The notes beneath the pieces are model-generated. The model was not told where the DNA came from, made no database searches, and was given only the letters and a program-made list of their open reading frames with translations. This document shows, piece after piece, positions 15,804 through 37,975 of a DNA stretch of 64,000 nt. Every line of letters begins with the position of its first letter. Within the stretch, counting starts at the first letter, position 1. A program made the translations under genes and the position numbers. The stretch is from positions 21,811 through 85,810 of the forward strand of contig CAUGSS010000004.1 of assembly GCA_959602365.1 (NCBI GenBank), written 5' to 3'. Source of the DNA: an uncultured Eubacteriales bacterium. GTDB taxonomy: Bacteria > Bacillota > Clostridia > Oscillospirales > Oscillospiraceae.

Positions 15804-15820
15804 AGTAGGATCCTCCCTTT

Positions 15821-18333: not shown

Positions 18334-18449
18334 GGCCGGTATTGCGTTTCATATGCTGAGTCGGAAACCTCTATTTATAGTTGTTTCATTTGAAATATCC
18401 GCCGGATCAAATTGATTCCGGCGGATTTTCTTATCCATCCATTTTTCGC

Positions 18450-18854: not shown

Positions 18855-18883
18855 ATCGAAACCCTCCTCTTTGCCTCATACCG

Positions 18884-20221: not shown

Positions 20222-20363
20222 GCATCATCGCCTCCCATTCCTCCGCCGTCAGCGTCTCCTCGTCGATAAAGATAATCTCTTTGTTGTCTGTCATAGCAGA
20301 TTTTCCTCCCGGTGTTAAATATAAGAAAAGCGCCTGTCAGTTAGACAGACGCTTTTACTGTAA

Positions 20364-20972: not shown

Positions 20973-21144
20973 AGTATCACCTCCTTTCGGCGGTCTAAAA
21001 AGTGTTGATTTTATAATAAAAGGTGGCCTCTATGCCGCCCGGCTACCTCGGAGGGGAAAACCTATGGGCGTTGACCTTTCGACCGACTGTGGATGAAAAA
21101 CATGGAATTTTCGACTCCTTTTGGGTCAGTTTCGAGTATGAAAA

Positions 21145-21172
21145 CACACCATAGGGTTGAACCTATGGTGTG
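21145..21172. promoter_or_regulatory. 11-bp perfect inverted repeat (cacaccatagg N6 cctatggtgtg), operator-like
   Basis: It lies in the divergent intergenic region between the wHTH gene (20972) and the Cys-protein/dual-NTPase operon (21309). A half-site copy cctatggg is at 21061. Confidence 0.4.
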
Positions 21173-21308
21173 CAAGGATTGTGTTATAGACCATTTTTAT
21201 TTATGTTTTGCAATTGTTTTTTGCCTATTAATCAGCTATAATTTTCCTACAGACTAATTGTGACAATTTTTTCGTAGACTATCTCTTACATTTAAGGTGG
21301 AGTGTTCT

Positions 21309-21734
21309 ATGGCTCTTCGAGCGGATCAGCGAGATTATAAGAACGCATTTCAAAAGCATCTGCATGCCTATACTAACTGGAAGGCTACTGGTAGTAGTGC
21401 AAGTAAACGGCTTATTTTAGCATATTGCGTGGAATGTGGGCTAAAATATGTAATTATGAAACAAGAAAACATATTTCGAACATCCGAAGCCCAAGATGAT
21501 ATAGCAAAAGAACTAAGTTCACATGACTATCGTAAGTTGTTAAGGCGATTAAAGCAAGCCGGAATATATGAATTTCCCACGATAAAAACTAATCACTGCG
21601 AAAATGTCCACCCAGAAACTTATCATGAATTTTGCAGATATTGTATTAAGCCGGAAGATAAGTACGTAGGAACTATCCAACAATACGACAAGACATTTGA
21701 AGAAATTGTTGAATGGATTGAGGAGCACATATGA
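21309..21734 (+). CDS. small Cys-containing protein (two CxxC pairs, putative Zn-ribbon); partner of the downstream dual-NTPase gene
   Basis: Start at the ATG 6 nt after the RBS AAGGTGGAG; the GTG start in the track lies inside that RBS. It contains CVEC and CRYC. The region is AT-rich, and its stop overlaps the next start (ATGA). Confidence 0.5.
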   Translation: MALRADQRDYKNAFQKHLHAYTNWKATGSSASKRLILAYCVECGLKYVIMKQENIFRTSEAQDDIAKELSSHDYRKLLRRLKQAGIYEFPTIKTNHCENVHPETYHEFCRYCIKPEDKYVGTIQQYDKTFEEIVEWIEEHI

Positions 21735-24355: not shown

Positions 24356-24437
24356 TCATTCGGACTATAGATAGCATAATAAAATTTTGTGATGGAGCGC
24401 CATAGCTATAGCTTTTATGCTTATGGCGCTCCACTAT

Positions 24438-24656
24438 TTATTCACTTTCCTCGTCCAGCCCCTCCGCCCTCAGCCAGTCCTCAAAGGACTTTCTGGAGAT
24501 GCGGATCATATTGCCGATGCGGATCGTCTTGAACAATCCGAAGTTGGCGAGTTTATAGGCCGAGGCGCGGCCGATACCGAGAATGGCTGCGATGTCATTC
24601 ACGGTGTATGTCCTGCTTTGGGGCGTCCCTTTTTCGTTGGTCGTGTCAGTGCTCAT
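24438..24656 (-). CDS. excisionase-family / MerR-like HTH DNA-binding protein
   Basis: 72-aa ORF (YTVNDIAAILGIGRASAYKLANFGLFKTIRIGNMIRISRKSFEDWL) matching the Xis-type HTH pattern. Confidence 0.55.
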   Translation of the reverse strand: MSTDTTNEKGTPQSRTYTVNDIAAILGIGRASAYKLANFGLFKTIRIGNMIRISRKSFEDWLRAEGLDEESE

Positions 24657-25169
24657 AAGATTAACCTCCCTATTCTAATATCATTTTGAAATGGTCCCTG
24701 GAAGCCCTCTGTCACAAGGGGTTCCTGCTAATACCTTGCTAATACGACATTTGAAAAGCCATTGTAAGGCAGCATATTTCAGGGGAATTTGTGCAAATTG
24801 ACTTGCTTCCAGGCAGCACAATTTACGAAGAAACAATATGGGAAGATATGATATGAACCATTTACGAAATGGTGCGCCATACTCCTAACGGCTTCGAACT
24901 ATTAACGACCTCGCTACATAAGGTATTTTTTCTCTTTTATGCGTTTACAGTACTGTATCGCGTCATTTTCTCTCAAAATATTGAAAAAAATATCACAAAA
25001 TCCATATGGGAGACTATTTCCAAGCCTCATACTCATTTTTAAGGGGAATCGTTCGAATCCATTATTCGCCCTCTCACTTATAGAGGTAGCACAAATATAG
25101 CGGAAACTTATGAAGCAAGCAGGAGAGCGTGGCGCTCATGCACCACGCTCTCCTGCTTATACTCTATCG

Positions 25170-26618
25170 TTATTCCATACCACGGTAGCCGTGCTTTTCT
25201 GCATGGCCAAGCAGATAAAGAAACGCGAAGGCCGGGATACGGATCAAATCTTTGCCGCTTTTCGTATTGTGGACGCCAAAGTCATCGGCAGTTTTGGTCA
25301 CCACGATGGAGGCTGCGGCTTCTCCGCTCAACTCTACGATCGCAGAATCATCCGGGATAGGGGCGCCCTCCCGGTATTTCACTTCGATGAGGATGTTCTT
25401 GGAATTGGCATATTCCACCACAACATCGACTTCTTTTCCTCGTTTGCCGCCGCGATAATATCCTACCGACGCAGCCTGCTGATAATAAAATGCAGCTACA
25501 TGCTTGTAAACTGCGGTTTCCACCACCTTCCCCATCTCGACCGGATCGCTCAGCATAGAGTCGTCCATTAAAACCGCATTGCGGATCGCCGCATCAGCAA
25601 TATAGATTTTAGGACTCGCTTTCAGGACCTTTTTTCCCCCCATATTGACGGGCCAGCTCTGATAAATTAAGTTAGCACTTTCCAGATATTCAATATAATT
25701 TTCTACGGTAGGTCTGGAAACACCATTCAGTTCCTTCGCAATCGCTTCGATAGAGACGATCTCAGAAGAAACATTGCACAGATAAAGAAAGATTCGCTCC
25801 AACTCTGTCGCATTGCGGATCTTATAAAGGGAGGGCAGATCCCGCTTGAGTACTTTGTCTACCACATCTTCCCGCATAATCTGCTGGGCCAGAATGTCGT
25901 TATCAGCCAGAGCCAGTTCGGGAAACCCGCCCACTTGCAGATAGCGGTTAAAGTGATTCTGCACCTTGGAGAGCTGCAGCATGATCTGGGTGCGTTCCTG
26001 CTGGGTCTTATATACCAGCGGTGTGATCTTTAAATTGTCCGGCAGGTCGGGACGATCCACATTCAGCAGTTCACAGTACTCATAGAAGGACAGCGTGGGA
26101 ACCTGGATCGCCGACCATCGACCAGCGCCGCTCTCCTGGCTCCCTTTGATCAAAACCGGACTGGCCGAGCCGGTAGCCACCATTTTGGTGTCCGGCTGCA
26201 TATCGTAGATCGTCTTCAGCCATTTGTCCCAATCCTGCGCATACTGGATCTCGTCAAAAAAGTAGTAGACATCCTGCTCCGGATAGATATTTTCGTGATA
26301 GCACTCCAGAATCTCATTCATGGCGCTTAACTTCAGCATGGGATGATCCATGGAAATAAAGACGATCTTCTGAGGCGGCACGCCGTTTTGGAGCAGAGCC
26401 TCGATCATCTGGTACTGTATGGTGGTCTTTCCAACTCGTCTGGTTCCTGTTAAAACCACTGTGCGCCGGATGTCGGTCTGATTCAGGCGCTTCATGGCCT
26501 CGTAATAGGCAAAGCGCTTATAAGTTTTGGACAGTTTGGGGTTTACGACTCCGGTTTTCCACCAGGGGTTGTAGGAAACCAGTACTTTCAGCAATCCTTC
26601 CTTGCTGATGATGGCCAT
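25170..26618 (-). CDS. AAA+ ATPase with DUF4143, copy 3
   Basis: 482-aa ORF with P-loop GTRRVGKTT and Walker B YFFDEIQ. It lies in the low-GC island and is followed by a hairpin at 25119..25155. Confidence 0.75.
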   Translation of the reverse strand: MAIISKEGLLKVLVSYNPWWKTGVVNPKLSKTYKRFAYYEAMKRLNQTDIRRTVVLTGTRRVGKTTIQYQMIEALLQNGVPPQKIVFISMDHPMLKLSAMNEILECYHENIYPEQDVYYFFDEIQYAQDWDKWLKTIYDMQPDTKMVATGSASPVLIKGSQESGAGRWSAIQVPTLSFYEYCELLNVDRPDLPDNLKITPLVYKTQQERTQIMLQLSKVQNHFNRYLQVGGFPELALADNDILAQQIMREDVVDKVLKRDLPSLYKIRNATELERIFLYLCNVSSEIVSIEAIAKELNGVSRPTVENYIEYLESANLIYQSWPVNMGGKKVLKASPKIYIADAAIRNAVLMDDSMLSDPVEMGKVVETAVYKHVAAFYYQQAASVGYYRGGKRGKEVDVVVEYANSKNILIEVKYREGAPIPDDSAIVELSGEAAASIVVTKTADDFGVHNTKSGKDLIRIPAFAFLYLLGHAEKHGYRGME

Positions 26619-26761
26619 ACAACCACCTCCTCCAGTAATATAGTAGCGCTAATTTTCATCTTTGTCAACAATTATTTAAACTATACCTTAAATAATTGTT
26701 GACAAGTATTGATAAATGCATCACTATTCTATCCAACTTAGAAGGTGAGTATACCTTTGCT

Positions 26762-28156
26762 TTACCACCGGTGTCTCTTGTGCTGAGGCCCTTTACTCTC
26801 TTGATTCTTTTCGTGTTCCCGCTTGCCCAGAAGCTCGTCCTCTTTTGCGATCGTAGGGTCGTACCAGTCTGCTTTTGCTCGAGCCCAAGACGCCCATGCA
26901 GAAAGGTCCTGCTCTGCATGGGCTTTTTCCATGGCAGAAACATAGGAACGGATTCTGCACGCAATATCATAGTCGGATGCGCAGTTGACAAGGGCCAGCG
27001 TTCGATCAACTTCTGCATTATACCGTTGACGCTGCTCCTCCCGCTTTCTTTCCTGCTCCTGGCGCTGCCGCTCTGCCTCCTCCCGGGCCAGGCGTGCTTG
27101 CTTCACCTGCTCCGCCTCACCATAGATGGAGAGCATCATATCTCCCAAACGGTCTTCCAGGACATAGGATCGGCAATCCCGAAATGTTTTTGCGCCATTG
27201 ACACATAGACTCAAGCGGCCATTGTAAACGGAATCATATTTACGAATTTGTGGCTTTGTTGCCCAAGAGTATTTTTTGCGCTTTTCTTCATATTCTAATA
27301 GTTTGAGATTTTCTTCTTTTGTTGGGGTATGTAGAATCTGGTCAGTCGACTCAGAAAATGTGAGCGTGACTGTATCTTGTTCCCTTGCAAATTGCAGATC
27401 ATTCGTCAAACGCCATCCCAGAGGTATCATAGCTTTGGCCAGCGCATCGATCAATCGAAAGATCCTCGGTTGCTGCTCTTCTGAAACCCCTTCGGCGAAT
27501 GGAGGCGGAACTTCCCGCCTCCCGCGATTCCAGTTTGCGCCGAATTTCCGCTCCTGCTGGCGCTTCCTCTTGTTCCATTCTGCGATCCGTTTTCGGTGCG
27601 CCACGATTTCCGGCCGCATACGGGCGTGTTCCTGCGGCAGCAAGATCTGTGCCGCCACATTCAGCACCACTTGCCGCTCTTCTTCAGGCAGAAATTCCAG
27701 AGAAGCCATGTCCTTGGCGGGATTGGCCCGGCGGCTGATCCCGGTTTGTATCCCCAGTTTTGTCTGTTCTTTTCCGGGCGGGAAGGATGTATCCACTGGA
27801 GAAGATACACTGGAAGGCTCGGAGGCAGTTTCCTCTTGGAGGGGGAGAACTTGCTCTGTTTTCTTTGCATCTGCAGTACTGGGCAATGTCTCCTGTAGCA
27901 GTTCAACGACGGCATCCCCATCCCCAGAGAGAGGCGTCTGTTCCACGGATTTTCCGAAGTTGAGTTTGGTCCAATATCCAGAGGGAGGGACAGGGATTTG
28001 GGCCGCCTTGATTTCTGCCAGACATTTGGCATATGGGATACCATATTTTCTGGATACACCTGCCACAGATATTTTCCAAATCTCTTCATAAAGTTCCTTT
28101 CGCGTCAGACGAACCGTAGCGGACGACATCACTGTTCTCACCTCCCGTTTATCCAA
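26762..28156 (-). CDS. hypothetical protein (464 aa) with a charged coiled-coil segment
   Basis: Intact ORF. The N-terminus is HTH-like (LTRKELYEEIWKISVAGVSRKYGIPYAKCLAEIKAAQIPVP), and there is a strongly charged coiled-coil (REEAERQRQEQERKREEQRQRYNAEVDRT). No family assigned. Confidence 0.4.
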   Translation of the reverse strand: MDKREVRTVMSSATVRLTRKELYEEIWKISVAGVSRKYGIPYAKCLAEIKAAQIPVPPSGYWTKLNFGKSVEQTPLSGDGDAVVELLQETLPSTADAKKTEQVLPLQEETASEPSSVSSPVDTSFPPGKEQTKLGIQTGISRRANPAKDMASLEFLPEEERQVVLNVAAQILLPQEHARMRPEIVAHRKRIAEWNKRKRQQERKFGANWNRGRREVPPPFAEGVSEEQQPRIFRLIDALAKAMIPLGWRLTNDLQFAREQDTVTLTFSESTDQILHTPTKEENLKLLEYEEKRKKYSWATKPQIRKYDSVYNGRLSLCVNGAKTFRDCRSYVLEDRLGDMMLSIYGEAEQVKQARLAREEAERQRQEQERKREEQRQRYNAEVDRTLALVNCASDYDIACRIRSYVSAMEKAHAEQDLSAWASWARAKADWYDPTIAKEDELLGKREHEKNQESKGPQHKRHRW

Positions 28157-28236
28157 AACCGGTGCTTTTCTCTCTTCGCTCTGAAAAGGCTGTGTTTCTG
28201 GTGATTCAGTATCTGCAAGGATCGCTAAAAACTGTT

Positions 28237-28581
28237 TTATCCCTCCAATTCCTCGTTTTCTTTTAATAAAAAAACCAAATCGCGTTTCATCTCTTCAAAT
28301 TGACTGATGATAGTATTCAGGTTCTTTTCAATATTCTGGACCTGCACCTCATTGATCCTGCCATGGTTATAGGCGATCAACCGCTCCGGAATGATGTTGT
28401 AACTCCAGCTCTCGCTGTATCCATCTTCCTTTTTGATGGCGAAACCGATTGGAAGAACATTGTTTCTCATACCCAAGGTCACCATCATGGGGGATATACC
28501 AAGATAGTCTGCGGCAATCTTGGCTGTAATTTTCGGCATTGCCCGGATCTCATCGTCCGTATACTTTCCCATACACTTCAC
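28237..28581 (-). CDS. hypothetical protein (114 aa)
   Basis: AT-rich ORF directly upstream of the 464-aa gene on the same strand. Confidence 0.3.
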   Translation of the reverse strand: MKCMGKYTDDEIRAMPKITAKIAADYLGISPMMVTLGMRNNVLPIGFAIKKEDGYSESWSYNIIPERLIAYNHGRINEVQVQNIEKNLNTIISQFEEMKRDLVFLLKENEELEG

Positions 28582-28787
28582 TTCCTCTCTCTTGGGGGAA
28601 TAGCAGTTTCACTTATATTGTGATTATATCATAGAGAGAGGTTATATGACGGAAAAGATTTGAATTTAACGAAATTTTCACAGATACATTCAGCGCCTTG
28701 ATACCATAATCTGCACGGCAGCGGCCCCGGAATCAGAGAACCGGGGCCGCTGCTTCTTGTGGCCGAGCAAGCTAAGTCATTCGTGTT

Positions 28788-31700
28788 TTACTGCTCGGAA
28801 CTGCTCCCTTTGCGGTGCTCCTTGCACGCCAACAAGACGGCCATACAACCACAGGCGGCCAACAGGATAGCAACACAGATCAGGATCGGAGCGGCATCCC
28901 CGGTCTCGGGTGCGGCCGGCGGAACTATAATTTCCACTGTCTGACCCTCATCGTTCCAGTCTTGATGCACCGCCACAGGCTGGACTTCCACATCCTCGCC
29001 CTGGTATAGCGCCTCAAATACCACCAGCTGGTGCCCGGCCAGGCTGCTGGCATCGAAGGTGAAGGAGACCTCCACGCTACCCTCCGCGGCTTCCGCCACA
29101 AAGGCAGTCACAGTGGTGATGGGCTGCCCCTGGGCGTCGGTCACCGCCAGGCCGGTCGTCTTGTCCATCAGAGTACCCACCAGCGTATAGGTCTGACCTG
29201 CCCGGAGATTGGTGTAGGTCACGGTGTCCAGGATAGTCACGCTGGAACCAGCGGTGGCCCTGTGGGTGCCGCTGGCCTGATCCACCGCGTTGGTGTGGAT
29301 GCCGGGGAAACTCACGCTCTGATCTGCATCATTTATATCCGCATGGGTGCCGACTTCGATGCCCTTGTAACGCAGGGACTCAAATGCTACTACAGTTTCA
29401 CCAGCCAGCAGGGAACCATCAAAGCTGAAGGTCAGCGTCACGCTGCCCTCGCTCTTTTCAGTGGTGAAGGTAGTGGAGGCAGCCACAGGATTGCCCTGGG
29501 CATCCACCAACAGCTCGCCGGTGGACCGGACGTACAGGACGCCATTGACCGTGTACTGCTCTCCCACGATCAGGTTGGAGTAGAACACCTTGTCCAGGAT
29601 AGTGACCGTCTCATCCGCAATGGAGGTGTGGTCACCGGACTCAGCGTCAATGGCGGTGGTGGCAATTTCAGGAATGTGCACCGTCTGATCCGGGTCGGCA
29701 AGGTCGGTGTGGGTGGCATACACGGTATCGTGCATGCTTAGAAACTCATAGATCACCAGCGTTTTGCCCCCGTGAATGGATCCGTCGAACACAAAGGTGT
29801 TGTCTACGGTGCCATCCGCCGTATCTGCCCGGAAGGAAGTTGTGGCGGTAATGGGATTGCCGTTGGCGTCATACACCGGCAGCCCTGTGTCAGCATCCAT
29901 CAAGGTACCAGTGAGCTGATAATTTCGCCCGGGCTGGAGATTAGTATAGGACACGGCATCCACAATGGTGACCGGGTTCTGGGCATATGCAACATGATCG
30001 CCGGTTTCCACATTGCTGGCATGAGTGTCAATGGCAGGGAAGTGCACCGTCTGCTCCTGGTCCGCCAAATCGGCGTGAACAAGAACCGGTTCATCGCTCA
30101 TTTCCTCACCATGGCCCGTATACAAGGTCTGACAGATGACCACAGACTGGCCTGCCAAGGCGCTGCCGTCCAGTACGAACTCCATGCGCAGGGAACCGCT
30201 GCGGGAGGTGGGCGTGAACTCCCGGGTAACAGAGATGGGGTTGCCCTCGGCATCCGTCAGCACCGCGCCGGTGGCCTGATCGACCAGGGTGCCCACCAAG
30301 GTGTAGTCAGTATTGGCCTGCAGGTTTTCATAGCGCACAGTGTCAATGACCACGGTACCGCTTTCAGCAGGTCCCCACCGAGAGTTGGTGGACTCCAACA
30401 CAGCGCTGGTACTCATGCGCATCTGGAAATTCTCAATGTTATTGAAGTCCACAGTATAGCCGTCTCTGGAGATTGTCAGAGTACCAGTCCACAGGATATA
30501 ATCCTCATTTGCCTCACATGGCTGCTCCTCCAGGGTGTAAGTGCCGTAGGGCAGGGCACCGACAGAATCATCGGGTTCACCAGCGCCGAACCAAAGGCCA
30601 CTGCCCACCGTACCGCCGTTGGTGTCCTGGGTGTGGGGAATCCAGGAGGCGGCGGAGCTGTAATAGCCGTTTTCATCGGTCACAAAGTAGTGGGTCTCGC
30701 CGGTGGCGTCATTGGTGATTTGAAAGGGCACGCCTGCCAGAGCAGTCTGTGTATCCCCGTCCACCTTGCGCAGCTCGAAATCGCCTCGGATGATGCGGTT
30801 GGAGATGGAGTGGTCAAAGTCGGCCAGATCCACCACCACGCCGTCTTCCACGATGTCAAACGCCTGGGAGGTAATGCCGTCAGAGGTGTAACCGGAGGGC
30901 GGGACGGCCTCCCGCACCTCATAGTGGCCGTAGGGGAGTAAATCAGCGGCAGTCTCAAACAGGCCGTTCTCATCGGTATACCCGGTATAGATCACCTGGC
31001 CATCGGTATAGGTGATGCCATTGACCACCACGTTACCTCCGGTGCGGTTGACGATCTCAAACTTCGCACCAGCCACAGTAGCCTCGCCCTGGCCCACATG
31101 TTCCTGGCTCTCAATGTCATACTTGTACAGCTTGACTCCGCCACGAATGACCTCATTAGAGATGGCGTGCTCGAAGTCAGTCAGATCCACAATCACACCA
31201 TTTTGCTCAATGGAGAAAATCTGAGAAGTGGTGCCGTCTCCGGTGTAGCCGGTGGGAGGGGTGACCTCGCGTACTTCATAGGTGCCGTATGGGAGCAGAT
31301 CTGCTGCCGTTTGGAACAGGCCGCTGTCGTCTGTCTTGGCGGCGTACACAACCTCGCCAGAAGCATAGCTCACACCATTGACCAGCACCGCATTGGCGCT
31401 GCGGTTGATAATCTCAAATACAGCACCCTGGACAGTTGCACCGCCCTGGGGCGTATGCGACTCCGTCTCAACGTCGTACTTGTACAGCTTGACGCCGCCC
31501 CGGATGACCTCGTTGGAAATGGAGTTTTCAGGGGCGGTTAGATCCACGATGACGCCGTGCTCGGAGATGTCAAATACCCGGGAGATGGTGCCGCCAATGG
31601 TGTAGCCTGTGGGCGGGGTCTGCTCCCGCAGCTCATAATGGCCTGCGGACAGCAGGTCGGAAGTGGTCTGGAACAGGCCGGAGGCATCTGTGCCGCCGGT

Positions 31701-33569
31701 ATAGACCACTGCGCCGTCGGCATAGCTGCCGCCATTGACGGAGATGGTCCGGCCCGTGCGGTTGACAATTTCAAACTGGGCGCTGGCCAGCGTGGCGCCG
31801 CCCTGGGGGGTGTTGGCGCCGGTCTCAGCGTCGCGCTTGCAGATCTTCACGCCGCCCCGGATCTCCGTGTCCTGCTTGGTGTAGGCGTTGCCGCCCCGCA
31901 GATAGCCGGTGCCGCCCGCCCCGTCCTGGGTGACGTTCAGCAGCACCACGCCATTGCTGTCGGAGACGGTCTGTCCGGTGGCATCATTGATATAGCTGCC
32001 CTCCAGGGTGTAGCCCTCCGGGGGCTTGGTCTCCTGGACGGTGACCGTGCCCAGCGGAAGCACCACTGAAGTGCCGGAGGGGTTGTGATAAAAATCGTCG
32101 CCGGAAACCTTGTAGTTGTCTGCGAGGATGGCCAAATACATCCCCGTGGCCTGATTGTATTTGGTCTCCACCACCCAGGTCCGGGTGGGCACGGCGGGCA
32201 GCTGTTCCACAGCGCTGTACTGTCCGTCATAGTAACACACGGTGAACTGGGCCCCTGCCAGTGAGGGGACGTCCCCGTCGGAATCAGCGGCAATCTTGGT
32301 CAGAGTGAGGCCCACCGGGTCGTTGGCGGGCTCCTCCGTCACCGTGACGCTGACCTGGGTGGTGTCCGCCGTCACGGGGTACACCGTGGCGTCCAGCTGA
32401 TAGCCCGGGCTGGCCGTGATCTCCTTCAGCCAGTAGCTGCCCTGTTCCAGCTCCCCGGTCGCGCCCTCCCCGTTGGCGCCGGTGGTGATGGTGGTCACCA
32501 GCTGGGTGCAGCCGGCGTCGGAGTAGACGCCGTAGACCGCCCCCTCCAGGGAGTAACAGCCGTTGCCGCCGGTGATGCCCGGGTTGGCGGAGCGTTTGAC
32601 CAGGCGAATTTGGGTGTACTCCACCGGCGGCTTCTCGTTGGTGGGGATCAGCATGACCTGATATCCGGATTCGCCGGTTTCATAGAGGCCATACAGGGAG
32701 TCAGAGCCCTGGTCCGCGATGGAGACCAGATATTGAGCCGCCGCCAGGGCCTCCTCCGTCCCGGCGCGCCCGGTGGTGCGCAGGTCGTCAATGGAGATGT
32801 CGCCGCTCTTGTTATAGGGGGACACACACCAGAGTGCTGCCTGGGTGGCCTGCCGGGCCTGATTGGCATCCAGCGCCACGCCTCCGATGGTGGTCTGGTT
32901 GGGATAGCCCGCATCCAGTATGGCGGCGGCCCGCTCATCAGCATACCCCAGGAACGTATACACCTGTGATTCACTCGGGGTGGCGCGCCCCTGGGCAAAA
33001 CAGTAGGCTGTATTCCCGTTCTGATCGGTGTGGATCGTCCCGGCGTTGACCCCCAGGCCGCCCTTGTCGGTGATCAGATTGGTGCCCGTGATCCGGGTGG
33101 TGGTAAAGGTGAAGGTGTCCCCGGCTCCCAGGGTGGAGACGCCGGGGCCCTCCAGGGAGACCAGCATCCGGGGCAGGTCCTCCCACCGGTAGCCCTCCGC
33201 CAGCGTGCAGCCCTCGGTCAGCGTCAACACAAAGGTCAGCAGGGAGACGCCGGCGGGGTCTGTCTCATAGGCCCGTTGATCCGCCGGGTCGCAGCTCCAG
33301 GTGATGGGGATCCTGGTCACAGTCCCGTCCGTCAGCGTCACCTGGGCCTCGGTGGGCAGCAGCCCAATCATGTCCTGGACTGTGGTGCCTCTCTCCCCGT
33401 AGACCACGCCTCTCTCCATGACATCATAGGAAATGTCGGCCACTTGTACACTGTCCGCAGATGCCGCCCCGATGTCCGATGCCTGGGCGGCGCCGGGAAG
33501 GGCCAGGCTGGCGCAGAGTGCCAGAGACAGGAGCAGGGATATGGCCCGTTTCAATTGGATGGACTTCAA
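28788..33569 (-). CDS. cell-wall-anchored thioester-forming adhesin with Cna-B/SpaA-type and VaFE repeats
   Basis: 1593-aa ORF with a signal peptide and a TQxA motif (ARQATQAALW). About 130-aa units recur (GGVKLYKYD...REVTPPTGYT), as do VaFE-like repeats (HTDLADPDQTVHIPEIAT...). The C-terminus is APETG + hydrophobic stretch + KEHRK, a sortase sorting signal. Start codon is TTG. Confidence 0.8.
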   Translation of the reverse strand: MKSIQLKRAISLLLSLALCASLALPGAAQASDIGAASADSVQVADISYDVMERGVVYGERGTTVQDMIGLLPTEAQVTLTDGTVTRIPITWSCDPADQRAYETDPAGVSLLTFVLTLTEGCTLAEGYRWEDLPRMLVSLEGPGVSTLGAGDTFTFTTTRITGTNLITDKGGLGVNAGTIHTDQNGNTAYCFAQGRATPSESQVYTFLGYADERAAAILDAGYPNQTTIGGVALDANQARQATQAALWCVSPYNKSGDISIDDLRTTGRAGTEEALAAAQYLVSIADQGSDSLYGLYETGESGYQVMLIPTNEKPPVEYTQIRLVKRSANPGITGGNGCYSLEGAVYGVYSDAGCTQLVTTITTGANGEGATGELEQGSYWLKEITASPGYQLDATVYPVTADTTQVSVTVTEEPANDPVGLTLTKIAADSDGDVPSLAGAQFTVCYYDGQYSAVEQLPAVPTRTWVVETKYNQATGMYLAILADNYKVSGDDFYHNPSGTSVVLPLGTVTVQETKPPEGYTLEGSYINDATGQTVSDSNGVVLLNVTQDGAGGTGYLRGGNAYTKQDTEIRGGVKICKRDAETGANTPQGGATLASAQFEIVNRTGRTISVNGGSYADGAVVYTGGTDASGLFQTTSDLLSAGHYELREQTPPTGYTIGGTISRVFDISEHGVIVDLTAPENSISNEVIRGGVKLYKYDVETESHTPQGGATVQGAVFEIINRSANAVLVNGVSYASGEVVYAAKTDDSGLFQTAADLLPYGTYEVREVTPPTGYTGDGTTSQIFSIEQNGVIVDLTDFEHAISNEVIRGGVKLYKYDIESQEHVGQGEATVAGAKFEIVNRTGGNVVVNGITYTDGQVIYTGYTDENGLFETAADLLPYGHYEVREAVPPSGYTSDGITSQAFDIVEDGVVVDLADFDHSISNRIIRGDFELRKVDGDTQTALAGVPFQITNDATGETHYFVTDENGYYSSAASWIPHTQDTNGGTVGSGLWFGAGEPDDSVGALPYGTYTLEEQPCEANEDYILWTGTLTISRDGYTVDFNNIENFQMRMSTSAVLESTNSRWGPAESGTVVIDTVRYENLQANTDYTLVGTLVDQATGAVLTDAEGNPISVTREFTPTSRSGSLRMEFVLDGSALAGQSVVICQTLYTGHGEEMSDEPVLVHADLADQEQTVHFPAIDTHASNVETGDHVAYAQNPVTIVDAVSYTNLQPGRNYQLTGTLMDADTGLPVYDANGNPITATTSFRADTADGTVDNTFVFDGSIHGGKTLVIYEFLSMHDTVYATHTDLADPDQTVHIPEIATTAIDAESGDHTSIADETVTILDKVFYSNLIVGEQYTVNGVLYVRSTGELLVDAQGNPVAASTTFTTEKSEGSVTLTFSFDGSLLAGETVVAFESLRYKGIEVGTHADINDADQSVSFPGIHTNAVDQASGTHRATAGSSVTILDTVTYTNLRAGQTYTLVGTLMDKTTGLAVTDAQGQPITTVTAFVAEAAEGSVEVSFTFDASSLAGHQLVVFEALYQGEDVEVQPVAVHQDWNDEGQTVEIIVPPAAPETGDAAPILICVAILLAACGCMAVLLACKEHRKGSSSEQ

Positions 33570-33640
33570 AAATGATCTCTCCTTTCGTGGTGGTATCTAT
33601 ATCAAAACATCCCGGACGCGCCGGGATGGAGTTTCCAGCA

Positions 33641-33683
33641 GGGAAAAGAAAAAGGACGGTAGATCCCGCAAGATCTATCGTCC
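33641..33683 (-). terminator. rho-independent terminator after the lipoprotein gene
   Basis: 12-bp stem ggacgatagatc/gatctaccgtcc (11/12 paired) with loop ttgcgg, then uuuuucuuuu on the minus strand. Confidence 0.6.
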
Positions 33684-33707
33684 CATTTCGGTTTGCTATG
33701 TTCTTTT

Positions 33708-34442
33708 TTACTGGGTGGCTCCGCAGGCGCAGCGGCAGCCAGTCACCACCTGTTCCTCCCAGGCCGCCGCATCCACGACCCAGACCTGCTCTGTCACAGG
33801 GTCGTGATGGATTGTACCTGTCTGCACCCTCTGATTGCTGTAGGAGGCCATGCCTTGGTGCTCCAACAGGATATGGACGCTGACCTCCTCCTCGGATACA
33901 AAGGATGCCCCGCAGGCGCCGCAGATGTTTCGGTACTCATAGACCGGCTCGTCGCAGGCTTCCGCCACGGTGCGGGTCTCGTAGTGGCCCACCTCGTCGT
34001 GGTACACCGTGGCATAGACCGGCTGCCAGTCGTGGGTGTGCCCGTCCTGCTCGTCCATGTCGCCGGCGTCCGCCGCGCTGGGCTGTTCCGTTTCCGGTGC
34101 CGCCCCATTGGCGCCGCCGGCGCTTCCGCCGTCCTGGTCCGCCCCGGCAGGTTCCGGCCGCCCGGTTTCGGCGGAGAAGCTCGCCTCCCGCTTGTCCGTC
34201 TCTGCCAAGCTCACGTCCTGACTGTCCTCCGGTGCCGGGGGCTCCACAGCCCCGGTTTCATCTGACGTCTGAATCGTCTCTCCTTGGTCCGCGGTCTCCA
34301 CAGCCTGCTCCAGGACGGGCCGCGCCAGCCCTGGGGCGCTCTCCGCCGCGGCCTTGCCCACGGCTCTGGCCCCGCAGCCCGCCAGCAGGCCCAGACAGAT
34401 CCCTCCGGCCAGCACTGCCGTCCAAACTCTGCTCCGCCTCAT
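33708..34442 (-). CDS. lipoprotein with acidic central region and Cys-rich C-terminus
   Basis: Signal peptide with lipobox LLAGC. The C-terminus has CGACG and CRCACG pairs. A strong terminator follows. Confidence 0.5.
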   Translation of the reverse strand: MRRSRVWTAVLAGGICLGLLAGCGARAVGKAAAESAPGLARPVLEQAVETADQGETIQTSDETGAVEPPAPEDSQDVSLAETDKREASFSAETGRPEPAGADQDGGSAGGANGAAPETEQPSAADAGDMDEQDGHTHDWQPVYATVYHDEVGHYETRTVAEACDEPVYEYRNICGACGASFVSEEEVSVHILLEHQGMASYSNQRVQTGTIHHDPVTEQVWVVDAAAWEEQVVTGCRCACGATQ

Positions 34443-34576
34443 CCGGCCCCCTCCTCTCTGGCATCCAAATCGGGCTCTGCAAGGCCAGTATAGTTGACCG
34501 CCGCCGCTCTGGCAAGGATACGGGGCCTCTGGCGCACTCTATAAGGCATAACTTTTGAGCGCATCCGCCTCAAATC

Positions 34577-34864
34577 CTATAATAACTGCTCTACCTCGCT
34601 CAATTTGGCGAGCAACGACTGCTTGCGCTCGTCGCTCAGGTCTGCCGACTCCTGCACCGCGGCATACATATGGGCATAGGCGGTGCTGATGCCGGCCCCC
34701 GGTTCGCAGAGCTGGACGGAGACCCCATTGAGCGCGGGCACCAGCTCCACATAGCCGCCGGGCTCCAGATGGTACGCCCTCCTCATGTCGATGGGGATGA
34801 CGATCCGTCCCAGCAGGTCAATTTTCCGTACCGTTTTCATCGGCGATTCTTTTTTGTGTCTCAT
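34577..34864 (-). CDS. AbrB/MazE-family DNA-binding protein
   Basis: 95-aa ORF (KIDLLGRIVIPIDMRRAYHLEPGGYVEL) with the swapped-hairpin domain. Confidence 0.6.
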   Translation of the reverse strand: MRHKKESPMKTVRKIDLLGRIVIPIDMRRAYHLEPGGYVELVPALNGVSVQLCEPGAGISTAYAHMYAAVQESADLSDERKQSLLAKLSEVEQLL

Positions 34865-35101
34865 GGCAATTCCTCACTTTCACGATTGTTCAGGTTTCCG
34901 GTCACTTCTTATCCTCTGTGCCGCAGTGCAGGAGGCTGAAAACTACGCCCCCAAAGGCCGCGCCAAGGGCAAAACCGATCAGCAGCAGCAATAGGTCCAT
35001 CTGGCATACACCCCCCTTCTTGTACATTCCAAGCAAAAAAGCATGGCCGCCGTGAAGCGCCATACTTTTTCCCGTCTTTATCATTACATTGAACTTTTCT
35101 C

Positions 35102-36031
35102 TTATCGCTCCTGTCCCCGCTCCCTTCTGCGCTGCCACTGTTCCAACAGATGGATGATGGTCTCCTGCATCTTTTGAGGCGTGTAACCTCTGGGGAAATA
35201 CCTGCGCAGGGTGTCGCCAGTCAGGGTGATTTTCTCCTGTTCGCTTTTCTTTTCCTCCCCCAGGATGGCCCGCATCACATCGGCGGACAGGCGTCCCTCC
35301 TGGCTGAACCTCTTCAGGCGCTGGGCCTGGGAGAGGGACGGCGTGGACTGTTCGCTGGACATCACATCCAAGAGCTGCTCCTGTTCCTCTTTCGTGAGGA
35401 AAGACAGCTCATAGGCCGGATTCAGGGCGATTTTCTTCTCGTCCACCATATCCAGCAGGGTGGGGACCAGCTCGGTCAGGCGGATATAGCGTTGTACTTG
35501 TCGCTGGCTTTCATTAGCCTGACTTGCTACCAAAGAAATAGATGTCTTTAACTTCTCGCCAAGTTGGCGAGAAGTTAAATCAGAACGTTCTCCCTGATGC
35601 TTCAAAGCCTCCAACTTCATCTTATAGGCGAAGGCCCGCTCACTGGGCAGCAGGCTCTCCCGCTGCAAATTGCTGTCCACCATGATGATGGTGGCCTGGT
35701 CGTCGTCCAGGTCCCGGACAATGACCGGCATAGTCTCCCGTCCCGCCAGCTCGCTGGCCCGACGCCGCCGGTGGCCAGCGATCAGCTCATAACCGCCATT
35801 GGGATCTGGTCGGGCGATGGCCGGCACCAGCACACCGTACTGCCGGACACTCTCCGCCGTCTCCAGCATGGCCTCGTCATCCCTAACCCGGAAGGGGTGG
35901 TTCTTGAACGGGTGCAGCTCCGACAGCGGAACCTCCAGCACCTTCTCCCGCCGGGCGTCAGCGCGGCTCGCCTCGGTGGAAAACAGGTCATCGACTGACG
36001 CAAGCTCTATTTTTCTCCCGTTGCTTTTCAA
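35102..36031 (-). CDS. parB: ParB/Spo0J-family partition protein
   Basis: ParB N-terminal domain motifs (LVPAIARPDPNGGYELIAGHRRRRA) and an HTH middle domain. Confidence 0.8.
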   Translation of the reverse strand: MKSNGRKIELASVDDLFSTEASRADARREKVLEVPLSELHPFKNHPFRVRDDEAMLETAESVRQYGVLVPAIARPDPNGGYELIAGHRRRRASELAGRETMPVIVRDLDDDQATIIMVDSNLQRESLLPSERAFAYKMKLEALKHQGERSDLTSRQLGEKLKTSISLVASQANESQRQVQRYIRLTELVPTLLDMVDEKKIALNPAYELSFLTKEEQEQLLDVMSSEQSTPSLSQAQRLKRFSQEGRLSADVMRAILGEEKKSEQEKITLTGDTLRRYFPRGYTPQKMQETIIHLLEQWQRRRERGQER

Positions 36032-36809
36032 GATGTAACACCTCCTTGGTCAGATTTTCATAGCTCTGGGCCACCTTGCCTCTGGGATCATAGGCGAAAA
36101 TACTCTTCCCCTCGGCGCTGGTCTCCTTGGCCCGGACGGAATGAGGGATTTCTGTGTTGAACACCTTGATCTTGCTACCGTAGGTCTCCCGCAGCAGGGC
36201 GGAAATCTCCTTGGCAAAATTGGTGCGGCTGTCCACCAGGGTCAGCAGAATGCCGTCGATCTGTAATTTGGGATTCAGCTGCCGCCGCACTCTCCCAATG
36301 GTGGACATCAGCTGCTCCAGCCCTTTGGCAGGCAGATACTCTGCCTGGACCGGGATAATAATCCGGTTGGCGGCGGCCAAGGCATTGACGGTGAGCATCC
36401 CCAGGGAGGGCTGACAGTCGATCAGGATGTGGGAATACTGGCCCCGTACCGTGTCCAGGTACTGCCGCAGGATGGTCTCCCGGCTCATGGCGTTGACCAG
36501 CGAGACCTCCATACCGGAGAGCTGGATGTCGGCGGGCATCAGGTCAACGCCCTCGCTGTGATGCAGGATGCCCTCGCCGGGTTGGATGGGCTCGTCCATA
36601 AGGATGCGGCCCATGGCGTTGGCCAGGGTGAACGGCAGCTTGTCCGGCTGAGGCCAGCCCAGGCTGACGGTCAGGCTGGCCTGGGGGTCTGCGTCCACCA
36701 GCAGCACCTTCTTTCCCGCCCGGGCAAGCCCGATCCCCAAATTGGCGCAGGTGGTCGTCTTGCCGACGCCGCCCTTCTGGTTGGCCACTGCAATGATTTG
36801 TGTATTCAT
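35988..36809 (-). CDS. parA: ParA/Soj-family partition ATPase
   Basis: Deviant Walker A KGGVGKTTT and the ParA pattern throughout; the last gene before the ICE boundary. Confidence 0.85.
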   Translation of the reverse strand: MNTQIIAVANQKGGVGKTTTCANLGIGLARAGKKVLLVDADPQASLTVSLGWPQPDKLPFTLANAMGRILMDEPIQPGEGILHHSEGVDLMPADIQLSGMEVSLVNAMSRETILRQYLDTVRGQYSHILIDCQPSLGMLTVNALAAANRIIIPVQAEYLPAKGLEQLMSTIGRVRRQLNPKLQIDGILLTLVDSRTNFAKEISALLRETYGSKIKVFNTEIPHSVRAKETSAEGKSIFAYDPRGKVAQSYENLTKEVLHLEKQREKNRACVSR

Positions 36810-37130
36810 CCTCTCTAGTCCCTCCTATTGCGGCATCTCCACGTTTTTGTTTTATGTAGCAAAACAGACGTCCATTTCTGAACGCCTGTCGTTATCGCAA
36901 TTTTTACTTTGACCGGAACGCACAATCGTTGATTCAGAAAACGAACGGATGGTATGATAGGAAAATGGAGATCTTGCTGAGGGATACTGCGGAAATGCTC
37001 AATTGAAAGTCGGTGATGAGTGGCCGCTTGTAATTTTTTGTAAATCGCTTACAATAAGCGCGGCGCTACCCCCTCAAGCATCAAAATCCGGCATCCATTG
37101 CGCCCCAATGCTTTCCTGGCTTCACTTACA

Positions 37131-37808
37131 TTAGTGGCGGCGCGATACATAGGAGCGGCTGATGCCGCACTGGGCTGCAATTTCCCGCTGGGTTCTGGGG
37201 GGCTTGCCGTCCAGGCCGTAGCGGCCCACAATGACCTGCCGCTCCCGCTCCTCCAGCACCTGTTCCACGCAGACCCGCACTTTCCTGCAGGCATCCCGGG
37301 TATCCAGCTCCTCCAGCATGTCATCCTCCACCCGGATCAGATCCAGTATGGACAGATTGCTGCCGTCCCCGTCAGTGTCCAGGGTCTCAGACAGAGAAAC
37401 CTCCCCCGCCAGCTTCCGCGTCTTGCGCAGATACATCAGGATCTCATTTTCGATACATCGGGCCGCATAGGTGGTCAATTTGATCTTTTTGTCCGCCCGG
37501 TAGGTGTTTACCGCCTTGATCAGGCCGATGGTGCCAATGCTGATCAGGTCATCCACGTCTCCGGTCTGGGTGTAATACTTTTTAACAATGTGAGCCACCA
37601 GCCGCAGGTTGTGCTCGATCAGCTTGTTGCGGGCGGCCATATCTCCCTGGGCCGCCTGTTCCAAAAACACCCGCTCCTCCTCCGGTTTCAGCGGCCGCGG
37701 GAAGGAACCGGTGCCGGTATTCATCCGCAGTGTAAAAAAGTTCCCCTGGAAGAGCAGCAGGGCCAAAACAGATAGCATATGCGTCAGCTCCTTTTTCATG
37801 AGTGACAT
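37131..37808 (-). CDS. sigK: sporulation sigma factor sigma-K, N-terminal 225 aa (pro-sequence through region 4.2); ORF stops after ...GISRSYVSRRH
   Basis: Near-identity to SigK/SpoIVCB motifs (ARNKLIEHNLRLVAHIVKKY...DLISIGTIGLIKAV...KLTTYAARCIENEILMYLRK...QREIAAQCGISRSYVSR). The canonical IEKRAL... C-terminus is missing. Confidence 0.7.
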   Translation of the reverse strand: MSLMKKELTHMLSVLALLLFQGNFFTLRMNTGTGSFPRPLKPEEERVFLEQAAQGDMAARNKLIEHNLRLVAHIVKKYYTQTGDVDDLISIGTIGLIKAVNTYRADKKIKLTTYAARCIENEILMYLRKTRKLAGEVSLSETLDTDGDGSNLSILDLIRVEDDMLEELDTRDACRKVRVCVEQVLEERERQVIVGRYGLDGKPPRTQREIAAQCGISRSYVSRRH

Positions 37809-37975
37809 ATCTTATTCCCCGACCGTATGTCCAAATTCCTCCCCCAGACAAAGCCCAGGCCGCCGAAAACCGGTACAAAAGTGCGGGCTCACCTTCCGGC
37901 GGCCACGCTCATGCGGCGCGCCTCCTGCTTCGTTGGATATTTTGCCAGCCGACCAGCAGCCTGCATAGAAAGCGG

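Follow-up and report, generated by a model that had tools for sequence, protein, structure and literature searches.

A conjugative element truncates sigK inside region 4.2 in an uncultured Oscillospiraceae bacterium: a candidate skin-like intervening element

We analysed a stretch of 64,000 nucleotides (hereafter the window) from contig CAUGSS010000004.1 of an uncultured Eubacteriales bacterium of the Oscillospiraceae, in which the 5' fragment of sigK is directly abutted by the ParA/ParB end of an integrative conjugative element (ICE). The features of this locus are collected in Table 1.

Table 1. Features of the sigK locus and of the conjugative element inside the window (positions counted from the first letter of the window).
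Feature	Position	Strand	Evidence or remark
sigK leader	37809..37840	-	contains CATACGGT; DNA comparison with other strains
sigK 5' fragment (spoIVCB-like)	37147..37808	-	NCBIfam SigK NF004471; protein and DNA identity to intact allele
attL common core TATGT	37147..37151	-	comparison of attB (L001), attL (window, L003, L009) and attR (L009, L128)
P' half-site of attP, ATCGCGCCGCCACTAATGTAAGTG	37123..37146	-	matches to L009 and L128 arms
Second P'-like half-site, GTAGCGCCGCGCTTATTGTAAGCG	37046..37069	-	direct repeat, ~77 nt inside the element
ICE, right-hand 37.1 kb	1..37146	-	Pfam/NCBIfam component genes; continues past the left window edge
ParA-family partition ATPase, first gene inside the ICE	35988..36809	-	NCBIfam ParA_partition 3.6e-35
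ParB/Spo0J-family protein	35102..36031	-	TIGR00180 parB_part 93.1 bits, cutoff 58.45
VaFE-repeat surface-anchored adhesin, 1593 aa	28788..33569	-	NF033903 VaFE_rpt 7.9e-138 and TQXA domain
ArdC-like anti-restriction protein / zincin metallopeptidase	18884..20221	-	PF18818 4.7e-37, PF08401 3.1e-16
MobA/VirD2-type relaxase	14373..16097	-	PF03432 Relaxase 7.3e-35
Type IV coupling protein (VirD4/TraG)	8832..10667	-	PF02534 2.2e-63, PF12696 4.7e-35
TrbL/VirB6-like channel protein	7609..8442	-	PF19597, weak; L136 counterpart annotated PF19478 TrbL_2
VirB4-type conjugation ATPase	4851..7274	-	PF19044 P-loop_TraG, PF12846 AAA_10, DUF87
Mating-apparatus cell-wall hydrolase (lysozyme and M23 peptidase)	2608..4845	-	PF01551 1.6e-32, PF18013 2e-19
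DUF3991/Toprim primase-like protein	1308..2555	-	PF13155, PF13154
HTH_36 protein (replication-initiator-like), last complete ICE gene in the window	483..1238	-	PF13730 8.2e-17

The inserted DNA carries a relaxase, a coupling protein (T4CP), a VirB4-type ATPase and T4SS parts, a gene content that identifies it as an ICE of the Firmicutes MPF type (MPF-FA-like), its integrase and far att site being inferred from related contigs and its transfer likewise inferred. Proteins of this ICE were matched in the short contigs L011, L136 and L137; PrgI was found in the related contig L136, and the HTH_36 gene is contiguous with AbrB-like and HipA-like genes in L011 and L138. The VaFE-repeat protein may be either ICE cargo or a mating adhesin. 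Profile matches to component genes thus upheld the original prediction, made without database searches, that the inserted DNA is a conjugative element. The parA end had been placed about 320 bp from sigK, and this also held: 321 nt separate the parA start (36809) from the sigK stop.

The sigK open reading frame (37131..37808, reverse strand) encodes 225 aa ending in ...GISRSYVSRRH-stop, the database start call being 37778 (MLSVL...). In the NCBIfam profile search it scored 257.7 bits against SigK NF004471 (cutoff 252); the match covers profile positions 8-215 of 235, so that nothing but the C-terminal end is absent. The fragment encodes the pro-sequence, regions 2, 3 and 4.1, and region 4.2 up to the start of its recognition helix. 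The intact same-species allele P0006, whose C-terminus reads ...SRIEKKALKKLEEAMEG, shows 100 % protein identity to the window SigK as far as ...SYVSR, and DNA identity to L001, which has the uninterrupted attB, is 99.3 %. Native sequence ends with the T at 37147, within the TATGT core; from there the reading frame extends into element DNA, which still specifies the codons SR across the junction and contributes RH and the stop (37131-37133). The predicted truncation within region 4.2 at the ICE end was confirmed by the profile and by P0006, the native tail that is lacking being 15 residues long (IEKKALKKLEEAMEG) and not ~25 as had been proposed. No further lesion was found in the 213 codons of the window sigK, and a motif search and low-stringency tblastn detected no IEK[KR]AL-type fragment in any of the six frames of the window. 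A nearby stretch reading ...NVSEARKAL..., formerly taken for an echo of sigK, proved to be the attP P' arm and a hairpin, both found in the unrelated 8-kb element L009. Upstream of sigK, only the leader is common to other strains, homology with an alternative upstream haplotype ending at 37840.

Assemblies obtained independently from other samples (L003-L008, L009/L010) show the same break point, and of the 120 nearest SigK clusters from gut Oscillospirales, 41 (about a third) are truncated at this junction, without internal stops in any of the 41. Samples ERZ28635910 and ERZ27295291 are among those with carriers. This recurrence is far beyond chance.

Comparison with sigK of relatives, which had been suggested as a way of defining attB, placed this site at TATGT on the basis of the intact same-species P0006/L001, in the context ...TCC TAT GT/C TCC CGC ATC GAG... 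within the recognition helix of region 4.2 (the slash marks the junction). TATGT, the right boundary of the ICE, is all that attB, attL and attR have in common, and its GT (37148-37147) is presumed, from sequence alone, to be the central crossover dinucleotide. The P' half-site, which supplies the codons S-R-R-H-stop, is identical to the P' arm of L009 at 20 of 24 positions and to the reverse complement of the P arm on the recombinase side of L128 at 19 of 24. Around GT, the two arms of the element make up an imperfect palindrome (TTTACATTAG-N10-AT GT AT-N10-CTAATGTAAA), which fits the expectation for the attP of a large serine recombinase (LSR); as inverted repeats, P and P' agree at 19-21 of 24 positions, and neither B nor B' shows a relationship to them (6-10 of 24). 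The second P'-like half-site matches the first at 17 of 24 positions and the reverse complement of the L128 P arm at 20 of 24; it is also present in L009, L170 and L174, the DNA between the two half-sites being different. Short attB and attP sites, the quasi-palindrome of attP, a common core of only a few bp and the lack of long direct repeats are the properties of an LSR att system. sigK is split by LSR integration at an attB inside the recognition helix of region 4.2, and the gene is not decaying but interrupted at a precise recombinase junction with the ICE.

Joining attL and attR in silico, using the 5' part from the window and same-species attR tails, gave exactly the intact 228-aa SigK P0006, which shows, in silico only, that precise excision would restore an in-frame sigK. 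The predicted form of attR is ...TTACATTAG-N10-ATGT/CTCCCGCATCGAGAAAAAGGCGCTGAAGAAG... (15 codons), and the reconstituted junctions would read ...CGCTCCTATGTCTCCCGCATC... for attB and ...TTACATTAGGCGCGGCGCTATGTATCGCGCCGCCACTAATGTAA... for attP. No excision junction or attP was detected, and viral contigs scanned for patterns of attR, attP and attL, with a narrow P-arm pattern (ACATTAG), returned no match.

The leftward continuation of the ICE was reconstructed from six overlapping contigs (L011, L046, L138, L139, L145 and L150) of elements that are 95-99.9 % identical. On this indirect basis, the ICE would run ~18 kb beyond the left window edge and reach a total size of at least 55 kb. Past the edge, AbrB-like and HipA-like genes would be followed by XRE regulators and a duplicated cargo (DUF5050 lipoproteins, SBP_bac_5 proteins and an ABC transporter), then by a two-gene operon of a 44-48-aa ORF and a 525-aa LSR, the 3' end of which would abut attR, the 15-codon sigK tail and bioY; this end of the window's own copy was not seen. 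L011 is 99.985 % identical to the window, L139 and L145 (same sample as L011) are collinear with L150, and the ICE backbone is joined to the cargo in L138 and L150, which are single contigs from independent samples. The same cargo leads to a 47-aa ORF, the LSR, attR, the sigK 3' tail and bioY in L128, L129, L147, L148 and L149. The LSR bears Resolvase, Recombinase and Zn_ribbon_recom domains, and it adjoins attR in L009, L128, L129, L134 and L147-L149. As the ABC ATPase P0262, the 391-aa P0450 and the 800-aa SBP P0405 are recorded on a contig of 111,891 nt, the same size as that of the truncated SigK P0001, cargo genes that adjoin the LSR elsewhere map to the source contig of the window. The records of the 47-aa ORF cluster include no contig of 111,891 nt, and a leftward walk with the HipA-like protein in metagenome contigs yielded 80 loci, none with attR, the closest (L046 and L047) diverging or ending in a repeat. 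The recombinase and distal sigK piece predicted beyond the left edge are supported in near-identical elements: in same-species contigs, the sigK 3' fragment lies with the LSR and attR upstream of bioY, none of these being proven to be the window's copy. L150, the full-length relative closest to the window's element, extends no further than the start of the LSR operon, its tail bearing the operon terminator and promoter; an IS110-like transposase lies between promoter and small ORF, where the contig ends. It is conceivable from L150 that the window's copy is unable to excise, or that its contig stops at the IS. A second LSR present in the window (43571-45331) was considered as the recombinase of the sigK element and rejected, being 23 % identical to the region-4.2 LSRs and located on the other side of sigK.

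Loci combining attR with an in-frame sigK tail were identified in at least 34 species-representative genomes, all 34 tails being in frame. This count is a lower bound because the P-arm pattern ACATTAG is too narrow and misses ACAATAG, ACAATAA and ACATTTG. An LSR 60-93 % identical to that of L009 was present in the fetched stretch of 19 of the 34 attR loci, mostly right beside attR. Cultured strains with the same attR include Anaerotruncus colihominis JM4-15, Butyricicoccus pullicaecorum ET57 and Oscillibacter valericigenes An907. The smallest element occupying the region-4.2 site measures 8 kb and the largest at least 55 kb, and even those of 8 kb keep the LSR/small-ORF operon, the promoter-like motif described below and both att arms, as a selected excision function predicts. 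The ICE genes of the window, when sought in the 34 attR loci, gave only a spurious VirB4-like fragment in the degenerate L026, and a second species harbours a related ICE remnant at the same sigK site (L174, backbone 65-71 % nucleotide identity), which is the sole, and indirect, sign of transfer. We infer that most strains of the window's species have lost the conjugation module by deletion and carry a non-conjugative intervening element of ~21 kb with the same ends. This family of sigK-splitting elements is widespread and, as far as the literature searched allows us to say, apparently undescribed.

The 44-48-aa ORF, for which no family was found in Pfam or PHROGs, may, given its position beside the LSR, be a recombination directionality factor. 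Upstream of this ORF, GCAAA-N15-17-CATAnnnT is conserved in 8 of 12 diverse loci, and the 64-kb window contains no occurrence (0.43 expected). We take this motif to resemble sigma-E/K mother-cell promoters, relying on the Bacillus consensus and on no data from this clade; inferred from sequence alone, it is only a hint that recombinase expression could be developmentally regulated.

The reading that we favour, with moderate confidence, is that sigK is split by an LSR-carrying ICE that excises in the sporulating mother cell and restores sigK, bearing in mind that sporulation-timed excision is inferred and that the recombinase end of the window's element was not seen. In vegetative cells, the insertion would do no harm, sigma-K being required only at a late stage and in the mother cell. 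As the cell sporulates, the mother cell would switch on the small-ORF/LSR operon via the promoter-like motif, and attL x attR recombination at the central GT would yield an element circle and an in-frame sigK, the forespore chromosome retaining the element. The same LSR would also be used in the horizontal life of the element, through attP x attB integration after conjugation. Counting against sporulation-timed excision, some relatives (such as Flavonifractor plautii and Oscillibacter valericigenes) have been described as non-spore-forming (bioRxiv 10.1101/2022.02.25.481979). As regards the skin-like excision originally proposed, the truncation of sigK at the ICE and its in silico restoration hold, the 3' piece at the far end is inferred from same-species contigs, and developmental excision remains an inference.

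A bolder reading, which we regard as unlikely as a whole, would make this a natural ICE acting as a skin element, with its LSR operon wired to the mother-cell sporulation programme. Sporulation would then both rebuild sigK and free a transfer-competent ICE circle in a cell about to lyse, coupling endospore formation to horizontal transfer, and the 8-21-kb elements would represent successive stages in the domestication of an ICE into a pure developmental switch.

Among the rival explanations, a dead-end insertion survives best and remains possible: a site-specific ICE would have entered sigK without regulated excision, carriers being asporogenous or sigK dispensable, and the split gene would be heading for loss. 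This is supported by reports of several non-spore-forming Oscillospiraceae (same preprint), by decayed derivatives (parA remnants in the L003 type, shortened T4CP and VirB4 genes in L174, only fragments in L026) and by the IS110-like insertion that parts the promoter from the LSR operon in L150. Furthermore, interrupted sigK alleles are more numerous than intact ones in this species, and none of the ten longest contigs with bioY contains an uninterrupted sigK. Against it, both halves of sigK are conserved in frame across many species (34 of 34 tails; 41 truncated clusters devoid of internal stops), and variable codons among same-species sigK 5' fragments are synonymous in nine cases and non-synonymous in one. 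The LSR, small ORF, motif and att arms are kept even in 8-kb elements, and intact and interrupted alleles with identical protein coexist within the species (P0006 with P0001, P0068 with P0060).

A composite or accretion artefact, in which the conjugation and LSR/cargo modules would be two tandem elements or a misassembly, the conjugative part not using the sigK recombinase, is very unlikely. In its favour, the hipA-like gene of related ICE backbones (L053, L055-L058; HipA-like protein 72-76 % identical) is immediately followed by an unrelated LSR, the cargo is internally duplicated, with a 419-nt repeat that breaks assemblies, and the second P'-like half-site lies 77 nt inside attL. However, the P' arm is just 314 nt from the parA start, no internal full site of attP, attL or attR type was found between backbone and cargo in L138 and L150, both of which span the two modules as single contigs, and the L003-type derivative retains the parA-side end together with the LSR end.

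Ordinary pseudogenisation, i.e. decay of sigK by frameshift or nonsense mutation with the ICE nearby by coincidence, could point to the fragmented fructose-PTS genes next door (a 108-aa Enzyme I remnant and a split EIIC) and had been kept as an alternative in the original prediction, but it is all but excluded, as homology to the intact allele stops abruptly at TATGT where an attP arm common to other elements takes over, no other lesion affects the 213 codons, the identical break recurs across species, the missing tail adjoins the LSR upstream of bioY in the same species, and the sigK tail that decay would require directly downstream of 37147 is nowhere in the window.

Returning to the favoured reading of an excisable ICE, split sigK is a textbook case of developmentally programmed DNA rearrangement, so far tied to prophage remnants that cut the gene in its middle, and a conjugative carrier with deletion derivatives would provide a stepwise picture of the passage from mobile element to host developmental switch. 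Truncated sigK genes of this kind are probably mis-annotated as pseudogenes or as complete 215-aa proteins, and deductions from MAGs could underestimate sporulation capacity. The LSR, with its 50-bp sites, also represents a ready-made, naturally orthogonal integration system.

The closest known systems are skin of Bacillus subtilis (SpoIVCA and Skr) and skinCd of Clostridioides difficile (SpoIVCA and CD1234), which split sigK into pieces of the same orientation, as is inferred here from same-species contigs (PMC6957869, PMC5025042, bioRxiv 10.1101/2022.02.25.481979). As in skin, precise excision would rebuild the reading frame, and the small ORF just upstream of the recombinase in region-4.2 elements is analogous to Skr. 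In the table of Galperin et al., each of the 15 split sigK genes is interrupted mid-gene, which leaves 114-152 aa in the 5' piece and 89-138 aa in the 3' piece, whereas attB here lies 15 codons before the stop, in the helix of region 4.2. The carrier is conjugative and estimated at 55 kb or more, instead of a prophage remnant of 2.6-48 kb, deposited phages encode no close relative of the LSR (35 % identity or less), and, unlike in skin, developmental excision is inferred. In Clostridium perfringens, the functional phage PhiS63 serves as a sigK intervening element (PMC3442830); it is a fully mobile element and not a remnant, as the region-4.2 ICE is inferred to be, but it is a phage, from a different host clade.

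LSR-driven conjugative transposons of Clostridia (Tn5397/TndX and the CTn elements of C. difficile) combine a conjugation module with an LSR at one end and integrate, like the sigK ICE, at a short core with a central dinucleotide. None of them is known to target sigK or to be tied to sporulation, whereas the sigK ICE targets a developmental gene and its inferred recombinase operon has a promoter-like motif that recalls mother-cell promoters. SPbeta in spsM and the gin element in gerE also rely on a unit of LSR and directionality factor to restore a mother-cell gene (PMC5595907, PMC6957869). Experiments by Suzuki et al. established that units of this type are interchangeable between phages and ICEs; their ICE was engineered (ICEBs1 with the SPbeta unit, in spsM), and the present case would be a natural ICE with a sigK-specific unit. 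Neither a natural ICE in sigK nor a region 4.2 attB was found in the literature searched, which is absence of evidence only. Relative to the skin paradigm, the likely novelties are an attB in region 4.2, a recombinase clade with a companion ORF, and a conjugative carrier, the recombinase end of the window's own element being inferred.

The ORF adjoining the ICE was assigned to SigK by NCBIfam NF004471 (257.7 bits, cutoff 252) and covers positions 3-213 of the 227 of the TIGR02846 profile, so that only the extreme C-terminus of the protein is absent. Its stop codon lies 321 nt from the parA start codon (36809). The original prediction of a sigK truncated at the right-hand end of the ICE, about 320 bp from parA, thus held. 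No IEK[KR]AL-type peptide was found in any frame of the whole window. A protein search retrieved an intact 228-aa SigK allele (P0006), 100 % identical over the part in common and ending in ...SRSYVSRIEKKALKKLEEAMEG; the contigs encoding it (L001 and L002) share 99 % DNA identity with the window, limited to positions 37840..37140. The suggested comparison with sigK of relatives was carried out, and attB was defined from L001.

The pentamer TATGT is the sole sequence common to attB, attL and attR. The two element arms are mutual inverted repeats (19-21 of 24 positions identical) and do not resemble the host arms, with which they share just 6-10 of 24 positions. Such an arrangement, with a central GT, is that of the attP/attB pair of a large serine recombinase (LSR). 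In-silico fusion of the window's 5' part with the attR tails found in six contigs of the same species reproduced the P0006 protein exactly. The sigK break is an insertion junction rather than decay, and the ICE was very likely placed there through an LSR-type event. A stretch reading ...NVSEARKAL..., previously regarded as an echo of sigK, proved to be the P' arm plus a hairpin, also present in the unrelated 8-kb element L009. A second P'-like half-site was seen near attL in four different elements and species (the window ICE, L009, L170 and L174), and the hairpin-containing DNA separating the two half-sites differs among them; it may serve as an accessory binding site or be left over from accretion.

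The DNA inserted in sigK is a conjugative element, its transfer being inferred from gene content. From 37146 leftward on the minus strand, ParA and ParB are followed by a 1593-aa VaFE-repeat adhesin and an ArdC-like protein, then by a MobA/VirD2 relaxase, DUF3801, a VirD4-type coupling protein, TrbL-like and VirB4, and lastly by a lysozyme/M23 hydrolase, a DUF3991-Toprim primase and an HTH_36 protein; a PrgI-like gene is annotated in a contig near-identical to the ICE (L136). No LSR of the sigK-targeting clade was found in the window. The low-GC island within the ICE is possibly a defence or other accessory insertion, and one of the AAA_14/DUF4143 genes shares ~200 nt with the 5' end of the longest relaxase ORF.

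The continuation of the ICE past the left window edge was pieced together from other assemblies. L011, a near-identical ICE contig (99.985 % identity to window 1-6735), extends it with AbrB-like and HipA-like genes; L138 and L150 (95-99.6 % identity to this region) continue via XRE regulators into duplicated cargo, i.e. DUF5050 lipoproteins, SBP_bac_5 proteins, a 783-aa protein and an ABC ATPase, and two contigs from the same sample as L011 (L139 and L145) are collinear with L150 at 95-97 %. In L128, L129, L147, L148 and L149, this same cargo precedes a 47-aa ORF and a 525-aa LSR (Resolvase, Recombinase and Zn_ribbon_recom domains), after which come attR, a 15-codon sigK tail, and then bioY, tetR and SIR2, the genes that also lie downstream of the intact sigK in L001. 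A recombinase and the distal sigK piece had been predicted beyond the left window edge, with a search there as the check; run on related assemblies, this search found the LSR, attR and the tail, and the claim held in these contigs, the end of the present copy not having been observed. Three cargo proteins (P0262, P0450 and P0405) are recorded on a 111,891-nt contig, and the contig with the window's truncated SigK (P0001) is also 111,891 nt long. We infer that LSR, attR and sigK tail are likely to stand at the far end of the window's own copy.

The last 950 nt of L150 include the terminator and promoter region found before the 47-aa ORF in L128, directly followed by an IS110-like transposase gene within which the contig ends. 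In L150, the closest full-length relative of the ICE, this gene separates the conserved promoter-like motif on one side from the ribosome-binding site of the small ORF/LSR operon on the other and, if a real insertion, would cut the recombinase off from its promoter. No member of the 47-aa ORF cluster is recorded on a 111,891-nt contig, so the window's source contig may likewise end at an IS. A 419-nt repeat, a copy of an XRE-regulator gene (96 % identical), follows both the hipA-like gene and the 800-aa SBP_bac_5 gene, and is also found at the ends of L011, L046 and L145, which accounts for assembly breaks after these two genes; the cargo between copies consists of paralogous DUF5050/SBP_bac_5 units. 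With 37.1 kb in the window, ~17.9 kb to the operon promoter and ~1.9 kb beyond, the ICE is estimated at roughly 57 kb.

Features of the interrupted sigK locus, its element and related elements (window coordinates unless a contig is named)
Feature	Location	Strand	Description
sigK 5' ORF	37131..37808	-	225 aa, ends ...AAQCGISRSYVSRRH then stop
attB	L001		CGCTCCTATGT / CTCCCGCATCGAG
attL	window (TATGT at 37151-37147)		CGCTCCTATGT / ATCGCGCCGCCACTAATGTAAGTG
attR	L128 (same species)		CGTTTACATTAGGCGCGGCGCTATGT / CTCCCGCATCGAG, adjoins serine recombinase
Second P'-like half-site	37046-37069		..GCGCTTATTGTAAGCG, direct repeat ~75-80 nt inside attL
Low-GC island in ICE	21000-24500		37 % GC vs ~58 %
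874-aa protein of island	21731-24355	+ (opposite to ICE)	KGGVGR-motif AAA ATPase domain, Sll1717-type P-loop domain
AAA_14/DUF4143 ATPase genes	11505-12782, 15898-17190, 25170-26618	- (all)	three paralogues, scattered in ICE
IS110-like transposase gene	L150:17630-18125
419-nt repeat	L150:977-1394 and 16753-17171
586-aa LSR	43571-45331	+	intact, 5.8 kb upstream of sigK, 55 % identical to region-2-targeting LSRs
Polysaccharide-biosynthesis cluster	47800-60300		nucleotidyl transferase, dehydratases or epimerases, acyltransferase, flippase-like protein, GT2, DegT aminotransferase
~8-kb elements at sigK site	L009, L170		kinase, Fic or TIR cargo
~21-kb derivative of window ICE	L003-L008 joined to L148, L149		attL, 330 nt of ICE end, parA remnants, cargo, LSR and attR kept
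Shortened relative of ICE conjugation backbone, same sigK site	L174 (other species, SigK 82 % identical)		65-71 % nt identity
Predicted proviral contigs, same sigK site			LSRs 70-87 % identical

Elements splitting sigK at the region-4.2 site form a family and not a single case. Truncation at exactly this codon (...SYVSR-R[HRGNAC] or ...SYV before the stop) was seen in 41 of the 120 SigK clusters closest to the query, down to 66 % SigK identity. The attR plus tail pattern was matched in at least 34 species-representative genomes, a lower bound because P-arm variants escape it; all 34 tails are in frame. Carriers include Oscillospiraceae MAGs, Candidatus Flavonifractor intestinigallinarum, Oscillibacter valericigenes An907, Anaerotruncus colihominis JM4-15, Butyricicoccus pullicaecorum ET57, Agathobaculum, Anaerotignum and a Lachnospiraceae MAG. 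Considering only the stretch fetched, an LSR with 60-93 % identity to the L009 enzyme was present at 19 of the 34 attR loci, mostly directly beside attR. The ~21-kb derivative, with LysR, OYE and MFS genes in place of the window's ICE backbone, is the commonest allele of the species (P0003, on at least 20 contigs). In related ICE backbones found elsewhere, the hipA-like gene is immediately followed by an unrelated LSR, so the integration module looks exchangeable; such exchange has been shown experimentally by Suzuki et al. (PMC6957869). The LSR is in opposite orientation in some relatives (L153 and L154 from IMG/VR, L023 and L027). L153 and L154 have the P arm fused to a sigma-factor 5' fragment (...GISRSYV) in reverse complement, the central dinucleotide being read as AC, an arrangement that suggests inverted integration set by a flipped central dinucleotide.

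Regarding excision during sporulation, the same-species sigK 5' fragments, most of them from interrupted alleles, differ at 9 synonymous versus 1 non-synonymous variable codons. Every element has kept the LSR and a small ORF (44-48 aa, motif ..VV.C......L.ELLEESFRLYL.R.L) without family match in Pfam or PHROGs. Upstream of this ORF, in 8 of 12 loci, GCAAA-N15-17-CATAnnnT occurs ~25-35 nt before the start codon within otherwise divergent DNA; it is absent from the 64-kb window (0 observed vs 0.43 expected). The Bacillus sigma-E consensus is kmATATT-N14-CATACAhT, to which we take this motif to be a match, and the adjoining GGACAGG is taken to be SpoIIID-box-like; both are inferred, without promoter or binding data. 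Because of the synonymous bias, the retained small ORF and LSR and the conserved motif, selected, sporulation-linked excision is favoured, not proven, and we lean, by inference, towards a regulated, skin-like excision of the ICE.

Among rival explanations, it is still possible that the insertion is a dead end and that the lineage is losing sporulation: asporogenous relatives have been reported (bioRxiv 10.1101/2022.02.25.481979) and the L150 IS110 insertion would uncouple the LSR operon from its promoter, but the codon, gene-retention and motif evidence weighs against it. A tandem composite of two elements is unlikely, since backbone and cargo both occur within single contigs and no full internal att site was found when looked for. 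Plain pseudogenisation of sigK, the original prediction's alternative, failed and is all but excluded, as the attB/attL/attR comparison shows an insertion junction and an intact allele (P0006) exists.

A second attB in sigK, in region 2 between ...LVAHIV and KKYY..., was observed in the same species (L126, L127 and L130-L133; around L126:9300-9400). This site is used by another LSR clade, whose members (555-556 aa, with a 60-aa ORF overlapping their start) are ~23 % identical to region-4.2 LSRs, and the cargo comprises polysaccharide or poly-gamma-glutamate-type genes. Of the species' ten longest bioY contigs, 6 have this insertion; strains thus differ in which of two sigK positions is split. 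The 586-aa LSR of the window is flanked by decayed fructose-PTS genes on one side, and by an AT-rich gap and the polysaccharide cluster on the other; this cluster, with its markedly low-GC core (36-45 % at 51-57 kb), would by analogy be typical of a variable surface-glycan locus. Two unrelated sequences lie upstream of sigK in the species, independently of the interrupting element: DeoR, PfkB, PTS fragments, HPr and an Enzyme-I remnant (window, L003, L009), or PNP and a 159-aa gene (L001, L004, L006-L008). The breakpoint between them is at window 37840, ~32 nt before the ATG (37808); it lies just 5' of a CATACGGT motif and within what is probably the sigK promoter.

Besides B. subtilis, C. difficile, C. 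tetani and C. perfringens, 12 further genomes are known to have a split sigK; in the tabulation of Galperin et al., all 15 are cut mid-gene (5' pieces of 114-152 aa, 3' pieces of 89-138 aa) by elements of 2.6-48 kb, judged (pro)phage in origin, with the recombinase at the element edge adjoining the 3' piece (bioRxiv 10.1101/2022.02.25.481979). A functional phage residing in sigK is also known (PMC3442830). In the literature searched, we found neither a natural conjugative element in sigK nor an attB in region 4.2. The ICE follows the logic of skin, which is itself already known, but differs from it and from the other known sigK elements in its attB site, its recombinase clade and its conjugative carrier.
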